64,000 nt of DNA, from the NCBI GenBank assembly GCA_903899845.1, contig CAIUKV010000251.1, positions 5,970-69,969 on the forward strand, written 5' to 3'. A program made the translations under genes and the position numbers. Below are positions 1,323 to 42,915 of this stretch, in pieces (position 1 is the stretch's first letter; every line of letters starts with the position of its first letter). The notes under the pieces are model-generated. The model saw only the letters and a list, made by a program, of their open reading frames with translations, was not told the origin of the DNA and made no database searches. Origin of the DNA: an uncultured Actinomycetes bacterium (GTDB lineage Bacteria; Actinomycetota; Acidimicrobiia; IMCC26256; PALSA-555).

Positions 1323-2681
1323 TCAGAGGGAGGCGATGAGGCGCTCGACCCGCTCGTCGCGCGCCTTGAACGGGTCCTTGCACAGCACCGTCCGCTGCGC
1401 CTGGTCGTTGAGCTTCAGGTGCACCCAGTCGACCGTGTAGTCGCGCTTGCGCTCCTTGGCCCGCTTGATGAAGGCGCCGCGCAGCCGGGCGCGCGTGGTC
1501 TGGGGCGGCGTGTGCATCGCGTTGTCGATGGCGTCGTCGTCGACCATCCGGTCGAGCTGACCGCGGCGCTCCATGAGGTAGTACAGCGACCGGGAGCGCG
1601 TGACGTCGTGGTAGGCGAGGTCGACCAGCGCGACCCGCGGACTCGTGAGCGCGAGGTCGTGGCGCTCGCGGAACGCCTCGATCAGGTGGTACTTGATCAC
1701 CCAGTCGACCTCGGTGCGGAGCTTGAGCGGGTCGTTCTCGAGGTGGGTCATCACGTGCTCCCACATGTCGAGCGCCTGCTGCTCCTCCGGGCCGAGCCCG
1801 TACTTCTTGGCGAAGGTCAGGGCCCGCTCCAGGTACTCGCTCTGGATCTCGACCGCCGACAGCTCGCGCCCGTTGGCGAGCCGCACCCGGCGACGGCAGG
1901 TCATGTCATGACTGATCTCGCGGATGGCCCGGATCGGGTTCTCGAGGCTGAGATCGCGCCACGGGGTGGGATCCTCCTCGAGGATCCGCAGCAGGATCGA
2001 GGTCGCCCCGGTCTTGAGGAACGTCGCGTACTCGCTCATGTTGGAGTCGCCGACGATCACGTGGAGGCGCCGGAACCGCTCGGCGTCGGCGTGGGGCTCG
2101 TCGCGGGTGTTGATGATCGGCCGGGACCGCGTGGTGGCGCTGGAGACGCCCTCCCAGATGTGCTCGGCCCGCTGGCTCACGCAGTACATGGCCCCGCGCG
2201 CGGTCTGGAGCACCTTGCCCGCGCCGGCGTACACCTGCCGCGACACGAGGAACGGGATCAGGACGTCGGTGAATCGGCTGAAGTCCCCGTCGCGCTCGAC
2301 GAGGTAGTTCTCGTGGCATCCGTAGGAGTTGCCCGCCGAGTCGGTGTTGTTCTTGAACAGGTAGACCTCGCCCCGGATCCCCTCCTCGCGCAGTCGCTGC
2401 TCGGCGCTGCGCACGAGCGCCTCGAGGATCCGCTCGCCGGCCTTGTCGTGGACCACGAGATCGGTGATCGAGTCGCACTCGGGCGTGGCGTACTCGGGGT
2501 GGCTCCCGACGTCGAGGTAGAGCCGGGCACCGTTCTCGAGGAAGACGTTGCTGGACCGTCCCCACGAGACCACCCGGCGGAAGAGGTAGCGGGCGACTTC
2601 GTCGGGGCTCAGACGGCGCTGGCCCCGCAGCGTGCAGGTGACTCCGTACTCGTTCTCGAGTCCGAAGATCCGCCGCTCCAT
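1323..2681 (-). CDS. pafA: Pup--protein ligase PafA
   Basis: From the internal ATG: [17 protein letters not shown]...[48 protein letters not shown], close to mycobacterial PafA. About 452 aa. The upstream part of the track ORF (to 2855) overlaps the divergent gene and looks non-coding. Confidence 0.95.
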
Positions 2682-2687
2682 GGACGA

Positions 2688-2693
2688 AGCGTA
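2688..2693 (-). promoter_or_regulatory. -10-like box TACGCT, 6 nt upstream of the pafA ATG (leaderless candidate)
   Basis: Minus-strand sequence ggTACGCTtcgtccATG. Only 46 nt separate the divergent pafA and DUF2007-like starts. Confidence 0.4.
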
Positions 2694-2715
2694 CCGGGGT
2701 GCCGCCGGGTGCGCG

Positions 2716-2721
2716 TAGCAT
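2716..2721 (+). promoter_or_regulatory. -10-like box TAGCAT, 6 nt upstream of the GTG at 2728 (leaderless candidate)
   Basis: gcgcgTAGCATcgggcgGTG on the plus strand. Confidence 0.4.
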
Positions 2722-2727
2722 CGGGCG

Positions 2728-3072
2728 GTGCCCCCGCTCGTCGCCCTGACGACCGTCCACGGCTCGTTCACGGCCCACGTGCTCGCGGCCCGTCTCGGGT
2801 GCGAGGGCATCGACGTCGAGCTGCGGGGCTCGGTCGGTGGGCCGTACGGACTCACCGTGGGCGACCTGGCCCGGGTCGATCTCTACGTGCCCGAGGAGCA
2901 CCTCGACGACGCCCGTCTGGTGCTGCTGGCGTCGGAGATCGACGACGCGTTGGCGCTGCCCGACCCCTCGGTGGCGGCGCCGCGTCCACGGACCGCCTGG
3001 GTGTGGGCCGCCGTGCTCGCGCTGGTGGTCGCCGCGATCGGGACGCCGATCCTGCGCCTCCTCGCCGACTGA
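2728..3072 (+). CDS. Small DUF2007-like (putative signal-transducing) protein with a C-terminal TM helix
   Basis: 114 aa, GC3 near 100%. [29 protein letters not shown]...[18 protein letters not shown] resembles the DUF2007 fold pattern. C-terminal [22 protein letters not shown] is hydrophobic. Confidence 0.6.
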
Positions 3073-3092
3073 GGCGCCCCGGCCCCGCCGGA

Positions 3093-3770
3093 TCAGCCGG
3101 CGGCGAGGACGGTGGCGAGGTCGTCACCCCGCACCCGCACGAAGGCCCGTCGGGTCCGGCGCCGGTCGAGGAAGGCGACCTCGAGGCTCGCCGCGCCGAG
3201 GGTCTCGCCCTCCAGCGCGAGGGCGCCCGCCCCGAGGCGGATCGCCCCGTCGCGGTCGAGGTCGGCACCCACCTGCGGGCGCAGGTGGTCGGCGATGGCC
3301 TCGGCCTGCCCGCCCAGCACCGTGAAGCCCTGCTCGTCCATGACGGTGCCGTCGTAGAGGATGTGGAACAGCTCGTCGTCGTCGGGGCGCTCCCCCACCT
3401 GCGCGACGAGGATCTCGACCTCGTAGGGCTTCATCTCGTGGGTGAAGACCTGGCCGAGCGTCTGGGCGTAGGCGTTGGCCAAGGACCGCGCGTTGACGTC
3501 CTCGCGGGCGAAGGAGTAGCCCTTGACGTCGGCCTGACGGACCCCGGCGATGCGCAGCATCTCGAACTCGTTGTACTTGCCGACGCCGGCGAACGCGATG
3601 CGGTCGTAGATCTCGCTGATCTTGTTGAGCATGCGCGAGGGGTTCTCGGCCACGATGACGATGCCGTCGGTGGTGCTGAAGGCGACGAGGCTGCGGCCCC
3701 GGGCGATGCCCTTGCGGGCGTAGTCGGCCCGGTCCTTCATCACCTGCTCGGGCGAGACGTAGAAGGGCAT
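3093..3770 (-). CDS. prcA: 20S proteasome alpha subunit
   Basis: From the internal ATG (cat at 3768-3770): MPFYVSPEQVMKDRADYARKGIARGRSLVAFSTTDGIVIVAENPS...KISEIYDRIAFAGVGKYNEFE. Starts 2 nt after the prcB stop. Confidence 0.95.
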   Translation of the reverse strand: MPFYVSPEQVMKDRADYARKGIARGRSLVAFSTTDGIVIVAENPSRMLNKISEIYDRIAFAGVGKYNEFEMLRIAGVRQADVKGYSFAREDVNARSLANAYAQTLGQVFTHEMKPYEVEILVAQVGERPDDDELFHILYDGTVMDEQGFTVLGGQAEAIADHLRPQVGADLDRDGAIRLGAGALALEGETLGAASLEVAFLDRRRTRRAFVRVRGDDLATVLAAG

Positions 3771-3772
3771 GC

Positions 3773-4585
3773 TCACAGGCCCGCTCCTTCCTCGCGGCCG
3801 CCGAGCAGCGCCTCGGCCCGGGTCCCGATCTCCTCGACCTCGAGGGCGTGGTACCCGGCGGCGTCGATGGTGGCGACCACCGGGAAGATGCGCCGGACGA
3901 GGTCGGGTCCACCGGTGGCGGAGTCCTCGTCGGCGGCGGCGAACAGCGCCCGCAGGGCGAGGTCGACGGCGGCGTCGCGCGACATGTCCTGGGTCCACTG
4001 GGCCTTGATCCAGTTCCGGGCGTGGATGCCGCCGGATCCCGTGGCCTGGAAGTCGGCCTCCTCGTACTTGCCGCCGGTGGCGTCGTAGGAGAACACCCGG
4101 CCGCGGTCGCGGCGCTCGTCGAAGCCGGCGAACAGGGGCACCACCACGAAGCCCTGCATGGCGGCGGGCAGGTTCGCCCGCACCAGGCCCGCGAGCTGGT
4201 TGGCCTTGCCCTCGAGGCTCAGCGGCTCACCCTCGATCTTCTCGTAGTGCTCGAGCTGCACCTGGAACAGGCGGACCAGCTCGACCGCGGGACCGGCCGC
4301 CCCGGCGATGGCCACGCCGGAGAAGTCGTCGGCGGGGAACACCTTCTCGATCCGCCGGCTGGCGATGAGGCTGCCGGCGGTCGCCCGGCGGTCACCCGCC
4401 ATCACCACGCCACGGTCGTAGCGGATCGCCACGATGGTGGTGCCGTGGGTGACCTCGGTCCCGAGCGTGCCGGTGCCGGCGGTCGCGCCGGGCACCTTGT
4501 CGGGGGCGACGCGGCGCAGCAGGTCGACGAAGGAGGCGCCGGGATCGGTGCCGGCGGCGAAGAAGGGCAGCGGGCTGTCGTTCAC
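3773..4585 (-). CDS. prcB: 20S proteasome beta subunit (about 48-aa propeptide, predicted Thr1 at HG/TTIVA)
   Basis: 270 aa. THGTTIVAIRYDRGVVMAGDRRATAGSLIASRRIEKVF is a typical PrcB active-site region. Confidence 0.95.
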   Translation of the reverse strand: MNDSPLPFFAAGTDPGASFVDLLRRVAPDKVPGATAGTGTLGTEVTHGTTIVAIRYDRGVVMAGDRRATAGSLIASRRIEKVFPADDFSGVAIAGAAGPAVELVRLFQVQLEHYEKIEGEPLSLEGKANQLAGLVRANLPAAMQGFVVVPLFAGFDERRDRGRVFSYDATGGKYEEADFQATGSGGIHARNWIKAQWTQDMSRDAAVDLALRALFAAADEDSATGGPDLVRRIFPVVATIDAAGYHALEVEEIGTRAEALLGGREEGAGL

Positions 4586-4616
4586 GAGCCGAGGAGCCTA
4601 CCCGGGCGCCGCCGGG

Positions 4617-4811
4617 TCACTCGCCGCCCTTCTGCACGTAGCTCTTGACGAACTCCTCGGCGTTCTCCTCGAGGACCTCGTCGATCTCGTCGAGCAGGTC
4701 GTCGAGCTCGGACTTGAGCTTCTCGCCCCGCTCGGTCGGGGCGGCGACCGCGGCCTCCTCCCCCACCCGCTCGCGCGGGGCGGGTCGCTGCTTGCGCTGC
4801 TGCTCGGGCAT
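4617..4811 (-). CDS. pup: Prokaryotic ubiquitin-like protein Pup, ending in GGE
   Basis: 64 aa: ...[29 protein letters not shown]. Strong SD (GAGGAGG) 4 nt upstream of the ATG. Lies between dop and prcB. Confidence 0.95.
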
Positions 4812-4894
4812 CGGACCTCCTCGGCTCCTTCAGCGGGGACGACGGCGGATCGGCCGCCACCCATGGGTTAGCACGTCGCTGCCTCCGGACCGGG

Positions 4895-6382
4895 TCACGA
4901 GGCCAGCCGGGCCACGAGGTCCGCGGGCGTGCGGGCCTGGTCGAGGAGCGCCTCGACGTGCACCCGGCTCCCCCGCAGCGGCTCCATCATCGGGATGCGC
5001 TTGAGGGGGTCGGTGCCCACGTCGAGGATGATGCTGTCCCAGTTGGCGGCGACCACGGCGTCGGGCCAGCGCTCCAGGCAGCGGCCCCGGAAGTACGCCC
5101 GGGTGCTCGCCGGCGGGTCGGTGATCGCCGCGGTGACCGCGTCCTCGTCGACGAGGCGCTCGACCGTGCCGGCGGCGACCAGCCGCTCGTACAGGGAGCG
5201 CTCGGGCCGGACGTCGTGGTACTGGAGGTCGAGGAGGGCGAGTTTCGGGTCGCCCCAGGCGAGCCCGTCGCGCGCGACGTACGCCTCCAGGAGCCGCAGC
5301 TTGGTGACCCAGTCGAGCTGGCCGTCGAGGGTCATGGGGTCGGCCTCGAGCGCGGTGAGGGTGCGCTCCCAGCGGTCGAGCACGAGGCCCCCGACCGCGG
5401 TGCCGCCGCAGGCTTCGAGGCCCGATCGGTCGGCGTACGCGCGGGCGAGGCGGAGGAACTCCCACTGCAGCTCCACCGCGGTGCACCGGCTGCCGTCGAC
5501 GAGCTCGACCGTGGCCCGGCAGGTCGGGTCGTGCGAGACCGACCGCATCGCCGCGACGGGGGTGGCGAGGGCGAGGTCGGACCGGACCACCTCGTCCTCG
5601 GTCATGGCCAGCACGATGGCGGTGGTGCCGACCTTCAGGAAGGTCGCGACCTCGCAGAGGTTGGCGTCACCCGCGATCACGTGGAGGCGCCGGTACCGCT
5701 GGGGGTCGGCGTGGGGCTCGTCGCGGGTGTTGACGATCGGCCGCTTGAGGGTGGTCTCGAGGCCGACCTCCTCCTCGAAGAAGTCGGCCCGCTGGCTGAT
5801 CTGGTAGCGGGCGACGCCGGCGCCGTTCTCGCTGCCGACCTTGCCTGCGCCGGTGAACACCTGGCGGCTGACGAACCACGGCAGCAGCACGCGCACCAGG
5901 TGGGCGAACGGGACCGCCCGGTCCACGAGGTAGTTCTCGTGGGTCCCGTAGCTGTTGCCCTTGCCGTCGGAGTTGTTCTTGTAGACGACGATCTCCTGGC
6001 CGGGATCGAGCAGCCGGTTGGCCGCCCGCATCGACCGGGCCAGGATCCGCTCGCCCGCCTTGTCGGCGACGACGAGCTCGAGGGCGTCGAGGCACTCCGG
6101 CGTGGAGTACTCGGGGTGCGCGTGGTCCACGTAGTACCGGGCGCCGTTCGTGAGCACGGTGTTGACGAGGTGGGTCTCCACCTCGGGGGCCATGGCGCCC
6201 TCACGGGCCGCGCCGCGGGCGTCGCGGTCGGGAGACTCGTCCTCGAAGTCCCAGCCCACGCGGCGCTGCTCGACGTAGCCGTTGATCAGGAGCGACGACG
6301 CCAGCACCGGGTTGGGGTCGGCCGCCCCCCGCAGGACGACCCCGTACTCCGTCTCGATGCCGCAGACCTTGGGGATCGCCAC
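4895..6382 (-). CDS. dop: Pup deamidase/depupylase Dop
   Basis: GTG at 6380-6382 gives VAIPKVCGIETEYGVV..., a PafA/Dop carboxylate-amine ligase fold (YYVDHAHPEYSTPEC, NNSDGKGNSYGTHENY). About 495 aa, immediately upstream of pup. The upstream track ORF extension overlaps the mpa end. Confidence 0.92.
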   Translation of the reverse strand: MAIPKVCGIETEYGVVLRGAADPNPVLASSLLINGYVEQRRVGWDFEDESPDRDARGAAREGAMAPEVETHLVNTVLTNGARYYVDHAHPEYSTPECLDALELVVADKAGERILARSMRAANRLLDPGQEIVVYKNNSDGKGNSYGTHENYLVDRAVPFAHLVRVLLPWFVSRQVFTGAGKVGSENGAGVARYQISQRADFFEEEVGLETTLKRPIVNTRDEPHADPQRYRRLHVIAGDANLCEVATFLKVGTTAIVLAMTEDEVVRSDLALATPVAAMRSVSHDPTCRATVELVDGSRCTAVELQWEFLRLARAYADRSGLEACGGTAVGGLVLDRWERTLTALEADPMTLDGQLDWVTKLRLLEAYVARDGLAWGDPKLALLDLQYHDVRPERSLYERLVAAGTVERLVDEDAVTAAITDPPASTRAYFRGRCLERWPDAVVAANWDSIILDVGTDPLKRIPMMEPLRGSRVHVEALLDQARTPADLVARLAS

Positions 6383-6428
6383 GGCACCGAGCCTACCGGG
6401 GCGGTCGGACGGCCCGACCCGGCGCGCG

Positions 6429-8207
6429 CTAGAGGTACTGGCCGGTGGTGATCCGCTCGATCTGGCGACCGCCGCCCTCGGTCTCGCCCCGGTTGACGAG
6501 GGTGCGCACGAAGACGATGCGCTCACCCTTCTTGCCCGAGATCTTCGCCCAGTCGTCGGGGTTCGTCGTGTTGGGGAGGTCCTCGTGCTCCTTGAACTCC
6601 TGGCGCACGGAGGCGAGGAGGTCGGCGGTGCAGATCCCCTTGGCGCCACCGTCGATCTGACGCTTGATCGACAGCTTCTTCGAGCGGCGCACGATGTTCT
6701 CGATCATTGCGCCCGACGAGAAGTCCTTGAAGAACAGGACCTCCTTGTCGCCGTTCTGGTACGTGACCTCGAGGAAGCGGTTGTCGTCGTCGACGGCGTA
6801 CATGCGGTCGACGGCGGCGTCGATCATCGCCCGCACGGCCCCGGCCGGGCTCCCCGCGCTCGCCACCTCGTCCTGGGCGATGGGGAGCGACGCCGTGAGG
6901 TAGCAGGCGAAGATCTTGCGGGCCGAGTCGGGGTCGGGCCGCTCGATCTTGATCTTCACGTCGAGGCGGCCCGGGCGCAGGATCGCCGGGTCGATCAGGT
7001 CCTCGCGGTTGGAGGCGCCGATGACGATGACGTTGCGCAGGCTCTCGACCCCGTCGATCTCGGCGAGCAGCTGCGGGACGATCGTGCTCTCGATGTCGGA
7101 CGAGATGCCGGTGCCCCGGGTGCGGAAGAGCGAGTCCATCTCGTCGAAGAAGACGATGACGGGCACGCCCTCCTCCGACTTCTCGCGGGCGCGCTGGAAG
7201 ATCAGCCGGATCTGGCGCTCGGTCTCGCCGACGTACTTGTTGAGCAGCTCGGGGCCCTTGATGTTCAGGAAGTAGGAGCGCTGCGACGAGTTGCCGGTGC
7301 GCTCGGCGACGCGCTTGGCCAGGGAGTTCGCGACCGCCTTGGCGATCAGCGTCTTGCCGCACCCGGGCGGGCCGTAGAGCAGGATCCCCTTGGGCGGCTC
7401 GAGCTGGTGCTCGGTGAACAGGTCGGCGTAGAGGTACGGCAGCTCGACTGCGTCCTTGATCAGCTCGATCTGGTCGTCGAGGCCACCGATGTCCTCGTAG
7501 TTGACGTCGGGCACCTCCTCCAGCACGAGCTCCTCGACCTCGGGCCGCGGCAGCCGCTCGACGATGAGATCGGAGCGCACGTCGAGCAGGAGGTGGTCGC
7601 CCGCCCGCAGGCGCTGCCCGACCATCGGCCCGGCCAGCTCGCACACCCGCTCCTCGTCGGCCCGACCGACCACGAGGGCCCGACGCTCGTCCTCGAGGAG
7701 CTCCTTGAGGACGACGACCTCCCCCGCCACCTCGAGGCCGCGGGCGAGCACGACGTTGAGCGACTCGTTGAGGGCCACCTCCTGGCCCCGCTCGAGCGCC
7801 TCGACGTCGACGTCGGGGTGGACCGAGACCCGCATCTTGCGCCCGGCGCTCAGCACGTCGACGCTGCCGTCGTCGTTGCAGCCGAGGAAGGTGCCGTAGG
7901 CCGCCGGGGGCATGGTCAGCTTCTCGACCTCCTCCCGGAGCGCGGCGATGTGCTCACGCGCCTCGCGCAGGGTGGCCGAGAGGCGCTCGTTCTGGGCGAT
8001 GGCCTGGGCGAGCTGCCCCTTGGTCTCGAGCAGGCGCTCCTCCAGGGTCCGGACCCGCTTCGGCGCGTCCTGAAGCCGGCGCCGCAGCACGGCGATCTCG
8101 GCCTCGAGCGCGTGGAACTGCTCGACCAGTCCGGGATCCGGGGCCTGCGGACCGGGCAGGTCGGGGTCCGGGGCGCCCGGACCGGTCGGTGCTGCTCCCT
8201 GGGCCAC
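6429..8207 (-). CDS. mpa: Proteasome-associated AAA+ ATPase Mpa/ARC
   Basis: Coiled-coil N-terminus. Walker A is GPPGCGKT. C-terminal ...ITTGQYL is a penultimate-Tyr proteasome docking motif. Start chosen at GTG 8205-8207, 9 nt after GAGGAGG. Confidence 0.95.
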
Positions 8208-8356
8208 TGCCGTGCACCTCCTCACGCCCCCGGGCCGGATGTCGTGTCGCGTGCTCGCGCCGTCGTGCTCGTGGGTCCGGCGCCGGTGCGCGGACACTAC
8301 ACGGGCCCCCGGCCGGTTCCGGTCGTTTCCCGCCGGTCGATTTCACCGGCCGATGC

Positions 8357-8385
8357 TTGAGAAATCCATGTCGGCTTGTTAGCCT
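8357..8385 (+). promoter_or_regulatory. Sigma-70-like promoter TTGAGA-N17-TAGCCT upstream of the ferredoxin gene
   Basis: gcTTGAGAaatccatgtcggcttgtTAGCCTtcgg. It is the most AT-rich patch I noticed while reading the window. It implies a leader of about 90 nt containing inverted repeats (ccgtcgg...ccgacgg; cccgg...ccggg). Confidence 0.45.
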
Positions 8386-8484
8386 TCGGCCCGTCGGCCC
8401 GCGCCGTTCGGGTCCCCGACGGAGGTCCCGGCGTCTCACCGGGCCCGCACGACCGAGCCCACCGCAACCCCACGGAGGACACCC

Positions 8485-8721
8485 ATGAAGGTCTGGATCG
8501 ACCAGGACCTCTGCACCGGCGACGGCCTGTGCGAGGAGATCGCCCCGGACGTGTTCACGCTCCTCGACGACGGCCTCGCCTACGTCAAGGAGGGCGGCAA
8601 GGTGTTCTCCGACCCGGGTGGCGCCGAGGGCGTCGCCAACGTGCCCGCGGGCATGGAAGAGGCCACGATCGAGTCGGCGGAGGAATGCCCCGGGGAGTGC
8701 ATCTTCATCGAGGTCGACTGA
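8485..8721 (+). CDS. Small single-cluster ferredoxin
   Basis: 78 aa: MKVWIDQDLCTGDGLCEEIAPDVF...ECPGECIFIEVD (CxxxxxC...CPxxC). SD GGAGG 6 nt upstream. Confidence 0.85.
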   Translation: MKVWIDQDLCTGDGLCEEIAPDVFTLLDDGLAYVKEGGKVFSDPGGAEGVANVPAGMEEATIESAEECPGECIFIEVD

Positions 8722-8730
8722 CCGGGATCC

Positions 8731-8782
8731 CCCGCGCGAGGCCGCGCGAGGCCGCGCGGGACCGAGCGGGACCGAGCGGGCC
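8731..8782. repeat. Two adjacent 10-nt tandem duplications / GC hairpin between convergent genes (terminator-like)
   Basis: cccgcgcgaggccgcgcgaggccgcgcggg then accgagcggg accgagcggg. cccgcgcg and cgcgcggg can pair. Confidence 0.4.
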
Positions 8783-8871
8783 GGGTCGACGACCTCCGCT
8801 CCCCCCGATTCCACCGATCGGCCCGGGCTCCGGCCCGGGCCGCTTCGCGTCCGGACCCGGTCGAGACCCGG

Positions 8872-9735
8872 TCAGGACCCGGGGTCGTCGGTGACGTCGG
8901 TGTCCTCGGGTGCGTCGGGTGCGTCGGATGCGTCGGATGCGTCGGGGCGGGCGGCCTCAGGGGTGAGGAGCCGGGCCACGGTGAGGAACCCGGTGTGGGC
9001 GACCATGCGGTGGTCGGGACGGACGGACTGCCCCTCGACGTGCCAGGTGCGGTGGAGCACCTCGAAGGTCTGGGCCATGCCGAACTCGGACTCGGCGATC
9101 GCCGCCCGCAACGTGGCGACCTGCAGGATCGTGGGCAGGTACGCGCAGAGGATGCCCCCGCGGGTCAGCGCGCCGGCGGCGTGGGGCACCACCCGCCACG
9201 GCTCGGGTAGGTCGAGCAGGATGCGGTCGAGGTCGGTCGCCTCGATCCCCTCGTAGACGTCGCGCACCTCCACCGTGAGGGGCACGTCGGGCCCGAGGAA
9301 GGCCTCGACGTTGCGGCGGGCCCGACCGGCGAAGTCGTCGCGGATCTCGTAGCCGAGGACGTGCCCGTCGGGGCCGAGCGCGCGCAGGAGGGTCATGGTG
9401 AGGGCGCCGGAGCCGACGCCCGACTCGAGGACGCGGGCGCCCGGGAACACGTCGGCGTGCACGAGGATCGCCCCGAGGTCCTTCGGGTAGATCACCTGGG
9501 CGCCCCGGGGCATCTCGAGCACGTACTCGGCGAGCGTGGGCCGGACTGCCGTGAGGCGCGCGCCCATGGTCGTCCGGACCCGGGTCCCCTCGGGGGCGCC
9601 GATGAGGTCGTCGTGGGCGACGATCCCGGCGTGGGAGTGGAAGGCGCCGCCGGCCTGGAGGACCACCAGGTGCCGCCGCCGCTTGGTGTCGAGGAGCAGG
9701 ACGCGCTCCCCCACCGTGAACGGACCCCGGCTCAC
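8872..9735 (-). CDS. trmI: tRNA (adenine58-N1)-methyltransferase TrmI
   Basis: GTG at 9733-9735 gives VSRGPFTVGERVLLLDTKRRRHLVVLQAGGAFHSHAGIV...VIYPKDLGAI...ESGVGSGALT, the GCD14/TrmI pattern. GTGA overlap with the upstream gene. Acidic repeat tail DASDASDAPDAPEDT. Confidence 0.85.
   Translation of the reverse strand: MSRGPFTVGERVLLLDTKRRRHLVVLQAGGAFHSHAGIVAHDDLIGAPEGTRVRTTMGARLTAVRPTLAEYVLEMPRGAQVIYPKDLGAILVHADVFPGARVLESGVGSGALTMTLLRALGPDGHVLGYEIRDDFAGRARRNVEAFLGPDVPLTVEVRDVYEGIEATDLDRILLDLPEPWRVVPHAAGALTRGGILCAYLPTILQVATLRAAIAESEFGMAQTFEVLHRTWHVEGQSVRPDHRMVAHTGFLTVARLLTPEAARPDASDASDAPDAPEDTDVTDDPGS
8911..8946. repeat. 4 tandem copies of a 9-nt unit (tgcgtcggN) inside the trmI 3' end
   Basis: tgcgtcggg tgcgtcgga tgcgtcgga tgcgtcggg. 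Encodes the (D-A-S/P) repeat tail. Confidence 0.6.
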
Positions 9736-36837: not shown

Positions 36838-38388
36838 TCAGGGATCGCTCAGCGCGTACATGTACCCGCCGCGGGTCCCGACGTAGACGCGGCCCTTCCA
36901 CACCGCGGGGGTCGACTCGATGCAGCCCCCGAGCCGGACCGACCACAGCTCGGGCGGCGACACCGTCGGGTTGCGGACGTCGAACGCCCGCAGCGTGCCC
37001 GAGCAGTCACCCTGGAGCCAGATCCCGTCGACGACGACCGGCGACCCCATGAGCGGGCCGGGCAGCCGCTTCTCCCAGCGGATCTCCCCGGTCCTGCGGT
37101 CCACGGCCACCGCCCGGCCGCTGTACGTGGTGAACAGGGCGACCTCCCCGACCAGCGCCGCGCTGGAGTACACGCCGGCCTGGGCGATCGACGCGTCGGC
37201 GTGCGACCACACCAGCGGGTCGGGCCGGCTGGGGTCCAGCTTGAACAGCTGGCCGACCTGCTTGGACCGGTCCGTGTAGCGCTCCCACTCCGCCCCGAGG
37301 TACAGCATCCCGTCCTCGTCGACCGCGATGGTCCCGTCGGTGTCGTCGCCGGCCCAGAAGCGGAAGGTGCGGGTCGGCGGTCCGGTCCCGGTGCGCACCG
37401 GACCGATGTCCCAGCCCTGCACGAGGCCGCCCGAGTTGGCGAAGTACATCGTGTCGCCCGAGATCGCGACCGAGCCCTCGATCGACAGGCTCGGGCCCCA
37501 GGCCCGCAGCTGCTCGTCGTCCCAGCCCGGCTCGTCGAACACGACCTGGGGCGCGAGCGTCACCCGCCCGTCGGGTCCGTACCCGCGGTTGAGCTTGACG
37601 ACGTAGAAGCGACTGTTCTCCCCGCCCTCGAACAGGTGGTCGTCGAGCACCAGCGCGGTGCTGTCCCAGTCGTCGTTCCAGTAGGTCCGGGAACCGCCGT
37701 ACGCCCAGAGGCGCCACAGCTCGCGGGGCTCGGGAGCGTCGATCGCGATGGCCCGGAAGTAGTCGTCGCGCGAGCCCGTGTAGACGATCGGGTAGCCGTC
37801 GGGGTCGATCGTCACCGACCCCTTGATGATGTCGCCGGTCGGGAACGGGGGCAGGATGTCCTCGCCGGTGACCGCGTCCACGAAGTGGACGGCCCGGTCG
37901 TAGGCCCCGAAGACGAGCCAGGTCCGCCCGCCCCGCTCGAACACCGCGGGCTGCCCGGTCCAGCCGGTGCCGCACCACACCGACGTCTCCGGCCCGTCGA
38001 CCGACTCCGCGCACATGCCCTGCCCCGGGATGCGCCACTGGACCCGGGGCGCCGTGGGCACCGGCCCGGCGCCGTACCAGGTGCGGGTCGGGTTGCCCCG
38101 GAAGGTGAGCAGTCCGGCCACCGTCGCTCCGGGGTAGGGCGCCCCCACCGACCGGGGGTCGACCCAGCCGGGGTAGGTCGTGGTGGTGGTCGTCGGCACC
38201 GTGGTGGCGGGGGGCACGGTCGTCCCCGGGACCGGGGCGGGGCCGCCCGCGGTGGCCCGCCCATCCCCGCCGGCGAGCACCAGGACGGCCGCCGTGCCCC
38301 CGCCGAGGACCACCAGCGCGACCGCGACCGCTCCGATGACGATGCGGCGGGTCCGGCGGCGCCGGCGGCGGTCGGAGCGACGGGCCAC
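36838..38388 (-). CDS. Membrane-anchored PQQ-like/BamB-like beta-propeller repeat protein
   Basis: N-terminal Arg-rich segment plus TM helix, a Thr/Pro linker, and repeated propeller blades (...AVDRRTGEIRWEK...). -10-like TACGGT (38395-38400) lies 6 nt upstream of the GTG. Confidence 0.75.
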   Translation of the reverse strand: MARRSDRRRRRRTRRIVIGAVAVALVVLGGGTAAVLVLAGGDGRATAGGPAPVPGTTVPPATTVPTTTTTTYPGWVDPRSVGAPYPGATVAGLLTFRGNPTRTWYGAGPVPTAPRVQWRIPGQGMCAESVDGPETSVWCGTGWTGQPAVFERGGRTWLVFGAYDRAVHFVDAVTGEDILPPFPTGDIIKGSVTIDPDGYPIVYTGSRDDYFRAIAIDAPEPRELWRLWAYGGSRTYWNDDWDSTALVLDDHLFEGGENSRFYVVKLNRGYGPDGRVTLAPQVVFDEPGWDDEQLRAWGPSLSIEGSVAISGDTMYFANSGGLVQGWDIGPVRTGTGPPTRTFRFWAGDDTDGTIAVDEDGMLYLGAEWERYTDRSKQVGQLFKLDPSRPDPLVWSHADASIAQAGVYSSAALVGEVALFTTYSGRAVAVDRRTGEIRWEKRLPGPLMGSPVVVDGIWLQGDCSGTLRAFDVRNPTVSPPELWSVRLGGCIESTPAVWKGRVYVGTRGGYMYALSDP

Positions 38389-38471
38389 GTCCGGACCGTA
38401 TCCCAGCGCCCGACCCGCCCGGCACCGGGCGCGCGTGCCGGTACCGTCGGGGTCCCGGACGACCTCTGGAG

Positions 38472-40415
38472 GTGCCCGTGTCCGACCGGACCCACGCCCG
38501 ACTGACCACGCCGCTGGTCCGCGACGCCGACCGGCTGGTGCCCGCGTCGTGGGACGTCGCCCTCGACCGTGCCGCGGCCGGGTTCGCGACCGCCCGAGAC
38601 CACCACGGCGCCGACGCCGTGGGCATGTTCTCGTGCTCCAAGGCGACCAACGAGGTGAACTACGCCGCGCAGAAGTTCATGCGCCTGGCGGTGGGCACCA
38701 ACAACATCGATTCCTGCAACCGCACCTGACACGCACCCAGCGTCGTCGGTCTGGCGACGGTCTTCGGGGCCGGGGGCGGCACCAGCAGCTATCGGGAGGT
38801 CGAGGAGGCCGACGTGGTCGTCCTCTGGGGCTCCAACGCGCGTGAGACCCACCCGATCTTCTTCCACCACGTGCTGCGGGCGGTCCGGGCCGGGGCCCGC
38901 CTGGTCGTGGTCGACCCCCGCCGGACCGCGACCGCCGAGTTCGCCGACCTGTGGCTGCCGATCGACGTCGGTGCCGACATCCCGCTCGCCCACGCCATCG
39001 CCCACGAGATCATCGCCGCCGGTCTGGTCCACGAGGAGTTCGTCGCCCGGGCCACCACCGGCTACGCCGAGTTCGCGGCCCAGGTCGCCGACTGGTCCCC
39101 GGAGCGGGCCGAGGCGGTCACCGGGGTGCCCGCCGACCTGGTCCGGGCCGCGGCGCACGCCTATGCGACGGCCCCGAAGGCCCAGCTGTGCTGGACGCTC
39201 GGGATCACCGAGCACCGCAGCGGCGTCGACAACGTGCTCGCGCTCTGCAACCTCGCGCTGCTGTGCGGGCACGTGGGGCGGTGGGGCTCGGGCCTCAGCC
39301 CGCTCCGGGGGCAGAACAACGTCCAGGGCGGCGGCGACATGGGCGCCCTGCCGAACCGGCTCCCCGGGTTCCAGGCCGTGACCGACCCCGAGGCCCGGAC
39401 CCGGGTCGAGGCGGTGTGGGGGCACCCGGTCCCGCCCGAGGACGGCCGCAACCTCACCGAGATGTTCGCGGCGATGGAGACCGGCGACCTGCGCGCCGTC
39501 TACGTGCTCGGGGAGAACCCGGCCCAGTCCGAGGCCGACGTCACCCGGGCCCGGCGGCTCCTCGGTGACCTCGAGCACCTCGTCGTCCAGGACCTGTACC
39601 TGACCCGTACCGCCGAGCTCGCCGACGTCGTGCTGCCCGCGACCGCGGCGTGGTGCGAGGCCGACGGCACCGTGACCAACTCCGAGCGGCGGGTGCAGCG
39701 GGTGCGCGCCGCGGTCCGCCCGCCGCAGGGTGCACGCGACGACCTCGCGATCCTCACGGCCGTCGCCGAGCGCCTCGGCACCCCCATCGGGCCGCCCGAC
39801 CCCGAGACGATGTGGGACGAGCTCCGGCGGGTGTCGCCGCTCCACGCCGGCATGAGCTGGGTCCGCATCGAGGCCCTCGGGGGCATCCAGTGGCCCTGCC
39901 CGTCGGAGACCGGGCTCGAGCCGTCGTTCCTCCACGGGCGCCTCTGGGCCGACGACCCCGCCGAGCGCGGCCGCCCGGCGCCGTTCTCGGTGGTCGAGTG
40001 GGTGCCCCCCGCCGACCCGCTCGCCGCCGACTTCCCGATCCGGCTGACCACGGGCCGCCGCCTCGACTCCTACAACACCGGGGTGCAGACCCGGCGCTTC
40101 TCGTCGCCGTTGCGCTTCGGCGAGACGGTCGACCTCTCCCCCGCCGACGCCGACGCGCTCGGGGTCGCCCCGGGTGAGGTCGTGCGGGTGGTGTCGCGCC
40201 GGGGTGCGGTCGAGGCGCCGGTCCGGATCGACCCGGGCCTGCGTGCCGGCCTCGCCTTCATGACGCTGCACTTCGGCGACGACGTCGACACGAACCGACT
40301 CACCATCGAGGCCGTCGACCCGAAGTCGGGGACGGCCGAGTTCAAGGCCACCGCCGTGCGCATCGAGCGGATCCCGGCGCCGGTGGGCGCCCCGGACGCA
40401 CCGCCGGCCCGGTGA
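38472..40415 (+). CDS. Formate dehydrogenase alpha subunit, Mo/W-bisPGD catalytic fragment, with selenocysteine at TGA 38727-38729
   Basis: The 38472..38729 and 38814..40415 ORFs are in the same frame. Read-through gives NNIDSCNRT-U-HAPSVVGLATVFGAGGGTSSYREVEEADVVVLWGSNARETHPIFFHH, which matches the Sec-His active site of FdhF-type enzymes. It lacks the N-terminal Fe-S region. An alternative start is GTG 38478, after GGAGG. Confidence 0.85.
38741..38759 (+). other. SECIS-like stem-loop, 12 nt downstream of the UGA
   Basis: CGUCGUC-GGUCU-GGCGACG: a 7-bp stem (one G-U pair) with a 5-nt loop containing GU. The loop starts 19 nt after the UGA. Confidence 0.55.
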
Positions 40416-42034
40416 GCGACGTGCGGCCCACCCTCGTGGGTGTCCCGGTGGGCCTCCCCGTCACCCGACCCCGGCGCGACGCCCTCCTGCCCGCGCTGCA
40501 CGAGGCGCACGACGCCGCCGGCTGGCTCGCACCCGAGGTGCTCGACGCGATCGCCGACCGCCTCGGCCTCGGGCGGGCCGAGGTGTTCGGCGTCGCGTCG
40601 TCGTACGCGTCGTTCGCGTTCACGCCCCGGTCCCGCCGCCTGCGCCGGGTGTGCACCGACGTCATGTGCACGGCGGCCGGTGCGGTGCCGCCCGGCGCCG
40701 ACGAGCCCGGCGTGGTGGCCTCCCCGTGCCTGGGCCGCTGCGAGCAGGCGCCGGCGGTGCTCGACACCGAGGGCGGGCGGGCCGTGGTGCCGGTCGCCCC
40801 CGCGCCCGTGCCGCAGCCGGTCTCGGCCCGCACGCTGCTGCGGCGCGTCGGGGTGGTCGACCCCGCCTCGCTCGACGACTACCGCGCCCACGGGGGCTGC
40901 GCCGCGCTCGCCCACGCCGGGCGGATCGGTCCGGCCGCCGTGCGCGCGGCGATCACCGCGTCGGGGCTGACCGGCCGCGGGGGCGCCGCCTTCCCCGCCG
41001 GCCGGAAGTGGGAGGCCGTCGCCGCCGCGTCCGGCGCGCCGAAGTACGTCGTCGCCAACGCCGACGAGTCGGAGCCGGGCACCTTCAAGGACCGGGTCGT
41101 ACTCGAGCACGACCCCTTCGCCGTGGTCGAGGCCATGACCGTGGCGGGCTACGCGGTCGGCGCCGAGGTCGGCTACCTGTACGTGCGCGACGAGTACCCC
41201 GAAGCGATCGCCCGCCTCGAGCACGCCATCGCCGCGGCCGAGACCGCCGGGCTGCTCGGCCCCGACGTCGCCGGGCTCGGGGTGGCATTCCGCATCGAGG
41301 TGCGCCGGGGGGCGGGGGCCTACGTGTGCGGCGAGGAGACCGCGCTCTTCGCGTCGATCGAGGGCTTCCGGGGCGAGCCCCGCACCAAGCCGCCCTACCC
41401 GGTCGACGCCGGGCTCTTCGGCCGTCCGACCCTGGTGCACAACGTCGAGACCCTGGCCAACGTCCTGCGCATCCTCGATCCCGACGGGGCCGCCCCCGAG
41501 ACCAAGCTCTTCTCGGTGTCGGGGGCGGTGGACCGCCCCGGGTGCTACGAGGTGCCCATGGGGACCACCCTGGCCGCGCTGCTCGACCTCGCCGGCGGTG
41601 TGCCCGTGGGCCGCCGGCTGCAGGCGGTCCTGCTCGGCGGCGCGGCCGGGACCTTCGTGCCGCCCGGGGAGATCGACGTCCCGCTCACGGTGGAGGCCAC
41701 CCGGGCCATCGGGGCCACGGTGGGATCGGGCGCGGTGTTCGTGTGCGACGACACCACCGACCTCGCCGCGGCCGTCCTCGGGATCGCCACCTTCTTCCGG
41801 GAGGAGTCCTGCGGCCAGTGCGTGCCCTGCCGGGTCGGCACCGTGCGCCAGGAGGAGGCCCTCCACCGCCTCGTCCACGGCCGCCCCCTCGGCTCGGTGG
41901 CCGAGGAGGTCCAGCGCCTGCGCGACGTCGGCGCCGCGATGCGCGACGCCTCGATCTGCGGCCTCGGCCAGTTCGCCTGGAACGCGGTCGAGGGCGCCAT
42001 CGACCGCTTCGGCGTCTTCGGGGAGCGGTCGTGA
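40412..42034 (+). CDS. NuoE-NuoF fusion (NAD(P)H-binding FMN/Fe-S diaphorase subunit of the formate dehydrogenase)
   Basis: GTGA overlap. NuoE cysteines (CTDVMC...CLGRC). NuoF motifs GRGGAAFPAGRKW, ANADESEPGTFKDR, YVCGEETAL, ESCGQCVPCR. Confidence 0.88.
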   Translation: MSDVRPTLVGVPVGLPVTRPRRDALLPALHEAHDAAGWLAPEVLDAIADRLGLGRAEVFGVASSYASFAFTPRSRRLRRVCTDVMCTAAGAVPPGADEPGVVASPCLGRCEQAPAVLDTEGGRAVVPVAPAPVPQPVSARTLLRRVGVVDPASLDDYRAHGGCAALAHAGRIGPAAVRAAITASGLTGRGGAAFPAGRKWEAVAAASGAPKYVVANADESEPGTFKDRVVLEHDPFAVVEAMTVAGYAVGAEVGYLYVRDEYPEAIARLEHAIAAAETAGLLGPDVAGLGVAFRIEVRRGAGAYVCGEETALFASIEGFRGEPRTKPPYPVDAGLFGRPTLVHNVETLANVLRILDPDGAAPETKLFSVSGAVDRPGCYEVPMGTTLAALLDLAGGVPVGRRLQAVLLGGAAGTFVPPGEIDVPLTVEATRAIGATVGSGAVFVCDDTTDLAAAVLGIATFFREESCGQCVPCRVGTVRQEEALHRLVHGRPLGSVAEEVQRLRDVGAAMRDASICGLGQFAWNAVEGAIDRFGVFGERS

Positions 42035-42915
42035 CCGACGGCGCCGGGAACCCGGCCCCCGCACCCGGGGCGACCGTCACCGTCACCGTCGACGGGCGCA
42101 CGGTGGAGGTTCCCGACGGCGCGACCGTCCTCGACGCGTGCACCGCGGCCGGGGTGGACACCCCGACCCTGTGCTTCGGCGACACGATCACCGCCCGCAA
42201 CGTGTGCCGGATCTGCGTCGTCGACGTGGCCGGGAGCCGGGCCCTCGTGCCGTCGTGCTCCCGGCGGGCCGAGCCCGGGATGGAGATCGGCACCGACACG
42301 CCCCGCGTCCGCCACGCCCGGCGCATGGTGCTCGAGCTGCTCGCCAGCAGCGTCGACCTGTCGCTGACCGACCACGTGGAGGAGTGGAGCATCCGCTACG
42401 GGGCCGACCCCGACCGCTTCGGGCCCGACGCCGCCACGGTGGCCCAGCCCGTGAAGGTCGACAACGACTGCTTCGTGCGCGACTACTCGCGCTGCATCCT
42501 GTGCTACCAGTGCACTGACGCCTGCGGCGAGCAGTGGCAGCACACCTTCGCGATCGCGATCGCGGGCCGGGGCTTCGGGGCCACGGTCTCCACCGAGCAC
42601 GACGTCACTCTCCCCGACTCGGCCTGCGTGTACTGCGGGAACTGCATCGAGGTGTGCCCGACCGACGCTCTGATGTTCCGCACCGAGTTCGACCTCCGCA
42701 CGATGGGGGCCTGGGCGCCCGAGCGCCAGACCCGCACCGACACCATCTGCGCCTTCTGCGGCGTGGGCTGCACCCTGACGCTGCACGTGCAGCGCGGCGC
42801 GACCGACGACGAGGGCGACCGGATCGTCAAGGTGACGTCCCCGCACGGGAGCAGCGTGACCGGCGGGAACCTGTGCATCAAGGGCCGGTTCGGCGCCGGC
42901 CACGTCCATTCCTGA
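42031..42915 (+). CDS. Formate dehydrogenase alpha subunit, N-terminal Fe-S fragment (NuoG-like 2Fe-2S, 4Fe-4S clusters and the MopB CxxCxxxC cluster)
   Basis: GTG 42031 (GTGA overlap). CFGDTITARNVCRIC, CILCYQCTDAC, CVYCGNCIEVCP, CAFCGVGCTLTLHV...GNLCIKGRFGAGHVHS-stop. It ends where the 38472 product begins (RLTTPLVR). Confidence 0.85.
   Translation: MTDGAGNPAPAPGATVTVTVDGRTVEVPDGATVLDACTAAGVDTPTLCFGDTITARNVCRICVVDVAGSRALVPSCSRRAEPGMEIGTDTPRVRHARRMVLELLASSVDLSLTDHVEEWSIRYGADPDRFGPDAATVAQPVKVDNDCFVRDYSRCILCYQCTDACGEQWQHTFAIAIAGRGFGATVSTEHDVTLPDSACVYCGNCIEVCPTDALMFRTEFDLRTMGAWAPERQTRTDTICAFCGVGCTLTLHVQRGATDDEGDRIVKVTSPHGSSVTGGNLCIKGRFGAGHVHS

Follow-up and report, generated by a model that had tools for sequence, protein, structure and literature searches.

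No bacterial selenoprotein is more widespread than FdhA, which accounts for 1276 genes in 822 organisms (PMC5029168). In the Actinobacteria the selenocysteine (Sec) trait has been documented with formate dehydrogenase (FDH) as the main or only selenoprotein, and in the mycobacterial case an FDH accompanied by selABCD is the sole predicted selenoprotein, with a Sec insertion sequence (SECIS) element directly after its UGA; the authors of that study note that UGA-rich Actinobacteria are routinely mis-annotated (PMC13449736). For bacterial SECIS elements, a distance of 16-37 nt from the UGA to the apical loop is quoted (PMC10778597). Here we analyse a 64-kb stretch of contig CAIUKV010000251.1 from an uncultured Actinomycetes bacterium (hereafter the window), in which two open reading frames (ORFs) resembling FDH are separated by an in-frame TGA at 38727-38729, the position homologous to codon 140 of Escherichia coli K-12 fdhF, which is likewise an in-frame TGA. 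An earlier note on this DNA, made from its letters only, had read the TGA as a Sec codon followed by a SECIS-like hairpin rather than as a pseudogene break. The comparative data bear this out: with Sec and Cys codons alternating among orthologues and a hairpin selected only in the TGA genes, TGA 38727 is very probably a genuine Sec codon with an fdhF-type SECIS in an intact FDH gene. Sec in the FDH alpha subunit is the textbook case and the most common one in bacteria, and the finding therefore confirms an expectation.

Results

An in-frame TGA at the active site of a predicted formate dehydrogenase

ORFs 38472..38729 and 38814..40415 share one frame and are joined through the TGA, as the earlier note had proposed. 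Read-through gives the peptide ...NNIDSCNRT-[TGA]-HAPSVVGLATVFGAGG...WGSNARETHPIFFHH, and the translation continues unbroken across the codon as ...NNIDSCNRT*HAPSVVGLATVFGAGGGTSSYREVEEADVVVLWGSNARETHPIFFHH.... Because a GGAGG motif at 38468-38472 lies 5′ of the GTG at 38478, this GTG is a likelier start than the one at 38472. The G+C content of the window is ~75% throughout. Of the 64 genes called in the window, 55 terminate in TGA, so there is no reassignment of this stop codon, and the catalytic gene's own terminator (40413-40415) is a TGA too.

For profile and structure searches, Cys was put in place of the stop. The product scored 626.9 bits with TIGR01591 (formate dehydrogenase subunit alpha; cut-off 666.25) over profile positions 51-672 of 672, and contained the molybdopterin and molybdopterin-dinucleotide binding domains PF00384 (236.8 bits) and PF01568 (90.3 bits); the remaining TIGR01591 positions, 1-49, were matched on the third gene of the operon with 31.4 bits. 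A nitrate reductase identity (NasC/NapA) was considered and rejected, the scores of 396 and 243 bits being far under the cut-offs of those profiles and under the Fdh-alpha score. The best solved-structure matches were all formate dehydrogenases (7qv7_S, 9t1s_L, 7bkb_D, 1aa6, 6tg9 and 7e5z). In the alignments to 7qv7_S, 9t1s_L and 7bkb_D, both the motif ...R-x-[C/X]-H-[AS/G]-[PA]-[ST]-V... and the catalytic Arg motif PLRGQNNVQG are kept, and the TGA aligns with the Cys/X metal ligand of the solved enzymes and is followed by the catalytic His, which agrees with the Sec/Cys-His active-site context that had been recognised from the read-through sequence. The Sec/Cys-His dyad and the catalytic Arg of FdhF (U140, H141 and R333) are thereby all present in the window gene. 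Neither a signal peptide nor an N-terminal Fe4S4 domain was found in the product of 38478..40415. We regard this interval as one intact gene, predicted to encode the catalytic subunit of a cytoplasmic NAD-type Mo/W formate dehydrogenase.

Orthologues carry TGA or a cysteine codon at the same position

A scan for orthologues, with one genome taken per species, returned at least 80 loci at 63-71% identity, the best match listed reaching 71%, and the listed loci span more than eight phyla. The codon at the position in question was TGA in 64 of the 80 matches listed and TGC or TGT in the other 16. In all 80 the frame was open on both sides, with at least 81 codons upstream and 547-581 downstream, and frame disruptions, indels and further stops were found in none of them. 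The comparison of this codon among orthologues, which the earlier note had suggested as a check, has therefore come out on the side of a Sec codon. Such alternation between TGA and Cys codons excludes a pseudogene and a sequencing error, and equally two independent genes.

The 64 listed TGA loci are all metagenome-assembled genomes (MAGs), from Actinomycetota, Acidimicrobiia, Chloroflexota, Acidobacteriota, Planctomycetota, Gemmatimonadota, Verrucomicrobiota and others. Among the matches listed, the 16 Cys loci (L014, L016, L019, L031, L037, L038, L042, L043, L050, L051, L055, L056, L064, L071, L073 and L077) all belong to cultured actinomycetes of the genera Kutzneria, Amycolatopsis, Lentzea, Nocardiopsis, Streptomyces and Streptosporangium. 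They form a single clade in a rough protein tree, so that the passage from Sec to Cys counts as one event, and the pattern suggests a single Sec-to-Cys replacement with decay of the SECIS afterwards.

Four closer relatives from metagenomes (L098-L100 and L102, ~80% identity, with syntenic neighbours) have the TGA and the same hairpin. Between the window and its close relatives, synonymous codon differences exceed amino-acid changes on both sides of the TGA; in the comparison with L098 they number 18 versus 9 upstream and 36 versus 29 downstream.

The hairpin behind the TGA is conserved at the nucleotide level

The hairpin lies within the ORF, its stem beginning at the 12th nucleotide past the TGA. 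The earlier note had described a 7-bp stem with a GGUCU loop at this place; the window has exactly this, but the seventh pair (columns 15-33, counted from the T of TGA) is formed in only about half of the relatives, and the conserved part of the stem comprises 6 bp (38742-38747 with 38753-38758). The apical loop occupies 38748-38752, which puts G38749 and U38750 at positions 23 and 24 from the U of UGA, as in E. coli fdhF. With 18 nt (38730-38747) between the UGA and the loop, the spacing falls within the 16-37 nt quoted for bacterial elements (PMC10778597), so that the earlier statement on loop distance and GU content holds.

We aligned 60 nt from the TGA onward for the window and the 64 TGA loci, giving 65 ungapped sequences. 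Columns 22-27 read GGT CTG in all 65, in an operon where GGT is a rare glycine codon (11 of 144 Gly codons). The six pairs from 16-32 to 21-27 were formed in every one of the 390 cells. At pair 18-30, both partners of which are synonymous third positions, 47 sequences have C-G and 18 have G-C, with no broken pair in any, while pairs 17-31 and 20-28 show one-sided changes to U-G, C-G or U-A, pairing being kept even where the amino acid changes. None of 500 column shuffles matched the observed covariation score or percentage paired, and controls in which the 3′ arm was slid scored lower than the true register. On a rough tree each variable pair has changed at least about four times independently, so the variation does not go back to one inherited event. 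The comparative signal at the exact register, comprising the fixed GGT CTG, the pairing and the compensatory changes, is far above chance.

The Cys orthologues behave differently. Fifteen of them were scored for the stem (L042, also Cys, was left out), with 59 of 90 cells paired and an intact stem in none of the 15, and their Gly codon varies between GGC, GGG, GGA and GGT. This contrast indicates that the hairpin is under nucleotide-level selection only in the TGA genes. A covariance model derived from the 65-sequence alignment had a single strong hit in the window, the runner-up reaching 16 bits, and the alignment provides a SECIS model, backed by covariation, for a family that goes undetected by Rfam.

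A lower helix in the RNAalifold consensus (pairs 7-44, 8-43, 10-41 and 11-40) falls in codon-constrained, nearly invariant columns with no covariation evidence either way. We did not adopt it as part of the element, because the columns concerned (7-11 and 40-44) are invariant.

Evidence against a selenocysteine codon and alternative explanations

Several observations weigh against Sec at this codon. Minimum free energy (MFE) folds of 64 nt and 48 nt use other pairings, with a z-score of -0.11 for the 64-nt fold, and the hairpin is the MFE structure only in a 26-nt context (-10.7 kcal/mol). Seven-bp hairpins are common in this GC-rich DNA, occurring ~13 times per kb in the window, where 13% of all TGA triplets have such a hairpin behind them at about the same distance. 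The stem lacks the bulged U of the E. coli fdhF SECIS. An Infernal search of the kind the earlier note had recommended, run as an Rfam 15 cmscan of 38500-39000 with E up to 10, matched no SECIS family and returned only two chance matches, both on the opposite strand. The hairpin by itself is not above chance in this 75% GC DNA, and the argument for a SECIS therefore rests on comparison and not on folding. In that comparison, the difference between Sec and Cys genes represents a single evolutionary replacement, since all the Cys orthologues fall in one clade.

The machinery for Sec insertion was also not found nearby. ARAGORN detected no tRNA gene at all in the window and tblastn with E. coli SelA, SelB and SelD gave no match in its 64 kb, in agreement with the earlier note, which had seen no selA, selB, selC or selD there. 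AIRS, SelA or SelB-type genes were not found within 10 kb beyond either window end, and selA, selB, selD and tRNA-Sec are absent both from the window and from the surroundings of the operon in the closest relatives. Indirect support for the Sec reading comes from seven TGA orthologues (L020 at 4142-7341, L034, L045, L048, L054, L072 and L075), one of them a Streptosporangiaceae MAG, which have tRNA-Sec, selD and at least one of selB and selA in the 10 kb upstream of the operon; L020, the sole Actinomycetota locus among these seven, gave no selA match. A SelD-bait search of JGI metagenome contigs yielded, among the matches listed, only soil actinobacterial SelD loci and none from samples in which the source organism occurs.

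Three other explanations of the TGA were weighed. If the FDH had been truncated by a TGC-to-TGA nonsense mutation or through an error in sequencing, the downstream ORF would be a dead remnant, and it is true that TGA is the usual stop in the window, that public gene callers read this TGA as a stop and deliver pieces of 80-84 and 522-535 amino acids, and that sel genes were not found in the window or in the 10 kb beyond its ends. However, the same TGA recurs in most of the listed orthologues across many phyla and in independent assemblies of close relatives, neither indels nor additional stops occur in the frame, purifying selection acts on the sequence to either side of the codon, and the downstream RNA hairpin is selected at the nucleotide level. 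The comparative data effectively refute a pseudogene, which we consider extremely improbable. No more credit can be given to the idea of two real genes, an 84-amino-acid protein ending at the TGA and an independent 533-amino-acid protein starting at GTG 38814. Both ORFs do exist mechanically and the family tolerates a split elsewhere, having its Fe4S4 domain on another gene, but the 28 codons between the TGA and 38814 encode HAPSVVGLATVFGAGG, the most conserved segment of the family, which includes the catalytic His and is coding-conserved in all loci. Moreover, the Cys orthologues are single proteins of 633-660 amino acids, and nothing in the data calls for a conserved start or ribosome-binding site.

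Finally, the UGA might be read through but not as Sec, either by a near-cognate Trp or Cys tRNA or by Cys-tRNA(Sec) under selenium scarcity, should the machinery have been partly lost. The failure to find Sec machinery in the window or 10 kb beyond it would fit such a loss, and a UGA followed by C is a leaky context. Against this, the SECIS is fully intact and constrained as in relatives with selD, tRNA-Sec and selA/selB beside the operon, whereas a lineage without the machinery would be expected to fix TGC or TGT, as the cultured actinomycete clade did; we judge read-through with another amino acid very unlikely. Sec insertion at TGA 38727 is the explanation that we retain.

A split three-gene operon

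The FDH gene is followed by two further genes, both junctions of the operon (38478-42915) being GTGA start/stop overlaps (Table 1). The Molybdop_Fe4S4 domain missing from the catalytic gene was located on the third gene, PF04879 lying at residues 235-294 of the 42031..42915 product and TIGR01591 positions 1-49 corresponding to its residues 238-293. The order of catalytic core, NuoE/F and iron-sulfur (Fe-S) half is kept in nearly all of the 80 loci listed, across more than eight phyla. NCBI labels the full-length members that have Cys either as 'NAD-dependent formate dehydrogenase catalytic subunit' or as 'molybdopterin oxidoreductase family protein'. Given these names and the NuoE/F/G-like partners, the enzyme is best likened to the FdsABG/Fdh1AB type with its alpha subunit split and permuted, that is, to a conserved three-gene NAD-type formate dehydrogenase. 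A narrow keyword search of the literature found no paper describing a split architecture of the NuoE/F/G type.

In L102, an extra gene of 520 amino acids (7580-9142) without a Pfam match stands between the FDH catalytic gene and a NuoF-like gene, and the latter lacks the NuoE part and encodes 396 amino acids.

Table 1 Features of the predicted selenoprotein formate dehydrogenase operon in the window
Feature	Position	Strand	Details
Formate dehydrogenase Mo/W-bis-PGD catalytic subunit gene (predicted)	38478..40415	+	~645 codons, Sec at codon 84; alternative start GTG 38472
UGA, probable selenocysteine codon, active-site Mo/W ligand	38727..38729	+	followed by catalytic His codon CAC
SECIS upper hairpin (predicted)	38741..38759	+	stem CGTCGTC 38741-38747 / GGCGACG 38753-38759, 7 bp, one G-U
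Possible lower SECIS helix, weak	38733..38770	+	38733-38734 and 38736-38737 with 38766-38767 and 38769-38770; RNAalifold consensus
NuoE-NuoF fusion (predicted)	40412..42034	+	[2Fe-2S] thioredoxin-like, FMN/NAD(H)-binding 51K and 4Fe-4S; PF01257, PF01512, PF10531, PF10589; TIGR01959, TIGR01958
Iron-sulfur subunit (predicted)	42031..42915	+	NuoG-N-terminal-like 2Fe-2S and 4Fe-4S dicluster, terminal Molybdop_Fe4S4; PF13510, PF12838, PF04879

Annotation of the gene and its neighbourhood

Public calls for the closest relatives (P0001-P0010, P0066; L098-L102) stop at the Sec TGA, leaving the 80-84- and 522-535-amino-acid pieces mentioned above, and an NCBI MAG entry, 'formate dehydrogenase subunit alpha [Acidimicrobiia bacterium]', is truncated at 526 amino acids. 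ORFs 38472..38729 and 38814..40415 should be merged into one selenoprotein gene, and the same correction applies to the truncated entries of the relatives.

Immediately upstream of the FDH gene and divergent from it, 36838-38388 on the minus strand encodes a predicted membrane-anchored beta-propeller of 516 amino acids with PQQ_2 or BamB-like repeats; in the closest relatives RmuC and FxsA genes are found at its position. Further to the left, a complete Pup-proteasome cluster (1323-8297), which identifies the source as an actinobacterium, holds genes for the Pup ligase PafA, proteasome alpha and beta, Pup, a second member of the Pup-ligase family (Dop-like) and an AAA ATPase, and in related contigs PafB/PafC-like WYL genes lie just past the left window end.

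Discussion

We propose that, when a ribosome reaches the UGA, the mRNA 12-33 nt downstream would fold into a short hairpin with a stem of 6-7 bp, whose GGUCU loop would expose the G and U at positions 23 and 24. SelB-GTP carrying Sec-tRNA(Sec) could then bind the loop and, competing with release factor 2, bring the tRNA to the A site, and translation would run on through the next His to the true stop at 40413-40415, a UGA without a hairpin. The product would form a complex with the flavoprotein that is the NuoE/F fusion (40412..42034) and with the Fe-S subunit (42031..42915), the latter providing the proximal 4Fe-4S domain, and this complex would couple formate oxidation or CO2 reduction to NAD(H). 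SelB binding, actual incorporation of selenium, the presence of selABCD in the source organism and NAD(H) as the redox partner are all points that we infer. A Sec codon at this position would imply a need for selenium, and selABCD elsewhere in the genome, of this uncultured actinobacterium of 75% GC.

More tentatively, the operon may exemplify an architecture of NAD-linked FDH that is widespread but uncharacterised in biochemical terms, with an alpha subunit both split and circularly permuted at the gene level, in which Sec is the prevailing form among uncultured Actinomycetota, Chloroflexota, Acidobacteriota and further, mostly aerobic lineages of soil and freshwater, and the Cys form is confined to the cultured actinomycete clade; we hold this broader picture to be possible, but on balance doubtful. 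If it is correct, the use of Sec in those phyla is systematically undercounted, since gene callers cut the gene in two.

Comparison with known systems

The recoding signal has a counterpart in the gene of E. coli FDH-H (FdhF, Sec140; 1aa6), whose catalytic domain is homologous to that of the window product (E 1.3e-127). In fdhF, as in the window, the TGA stands at the homologous codon and is followed by CAC (His), the hairpin lies inside the ORF, and GGT CTG occupies the same columns 22-27 from the T of TGA. Downstream of the TGA, only 28 of 60 nt are identical between the two. The covariance model of the family matched fdhF weakly (11.6 bits, E 6.6), with the match starting exactly at its TGA. 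The fdhF loop is GGUC closed by A-U, whereas the window has the 5-nt loop GGUCU closed by C-G, and FdhF has an Fe4S4 domain at its own N terminus and acts as part of formate hydrogenlyase, whereas the window enzyme has NuoE/F-like partners. A GGUCU pentaloop closed by C-G presumably resembles the SECIS of Moorella thermoacetica fdhA that was crystallised with SelB.

The mycobacterial selenoprotein FDH shares the phylum-level setting of the window gene, but it may be of another type, its genes being annotated as fdhA/fdoG 'precursor', and its SECIS elements are reported to have been detected with Rfam (PMC13449736), whereas the window SECIS has no Rfam match. The NCBIfam model NF041513 (formate_DH_Act) gave the window gene 181 bits against a cut-off of 1400.

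Among solved structures, the best match was FdhF of Thermoanaerobacter kivui (7qv7_S; 494.6 bits, E 4.6e-147, query residues 9-635), which shares ...C-H-A-P-[ST]-V-x-G-L... and RGQNNVQG with the window product. The T. kivui protein, by contrast, is a component of the filaments of a hydrogen-dependent CO2 reductase, alongside hydrogenase partners; it contains an Fe4S4 domain of its own and was deposited with Cys as the ligand residue.

In partner composition, the window operon comes closest to FdsABG of Rhodobacter capsulatus (6tg9) and FoDH1/Fdh1AB of Methylobacterium extorquens (7e5z, 7vw6), whose catalytic cores matched with E about 1e-121 and whose partner modules, like those of the window, are homologous to NuoE, NuoF and the NuoG N-terminus; Fdh1B is also a NuoE-NuoF fusion. 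Their alpha subunit is one unsplit chain of ~960-995 amino acids, with which the window product aligns only from residues ~307/374 onward, whereas in the window alpha is split, the last gene of the operon encoding its Fe-S half, in which the Fe4S4 domain lies. The metal of those enzymes is bound by Cys, where the window enzyme is predicted to use Sec.

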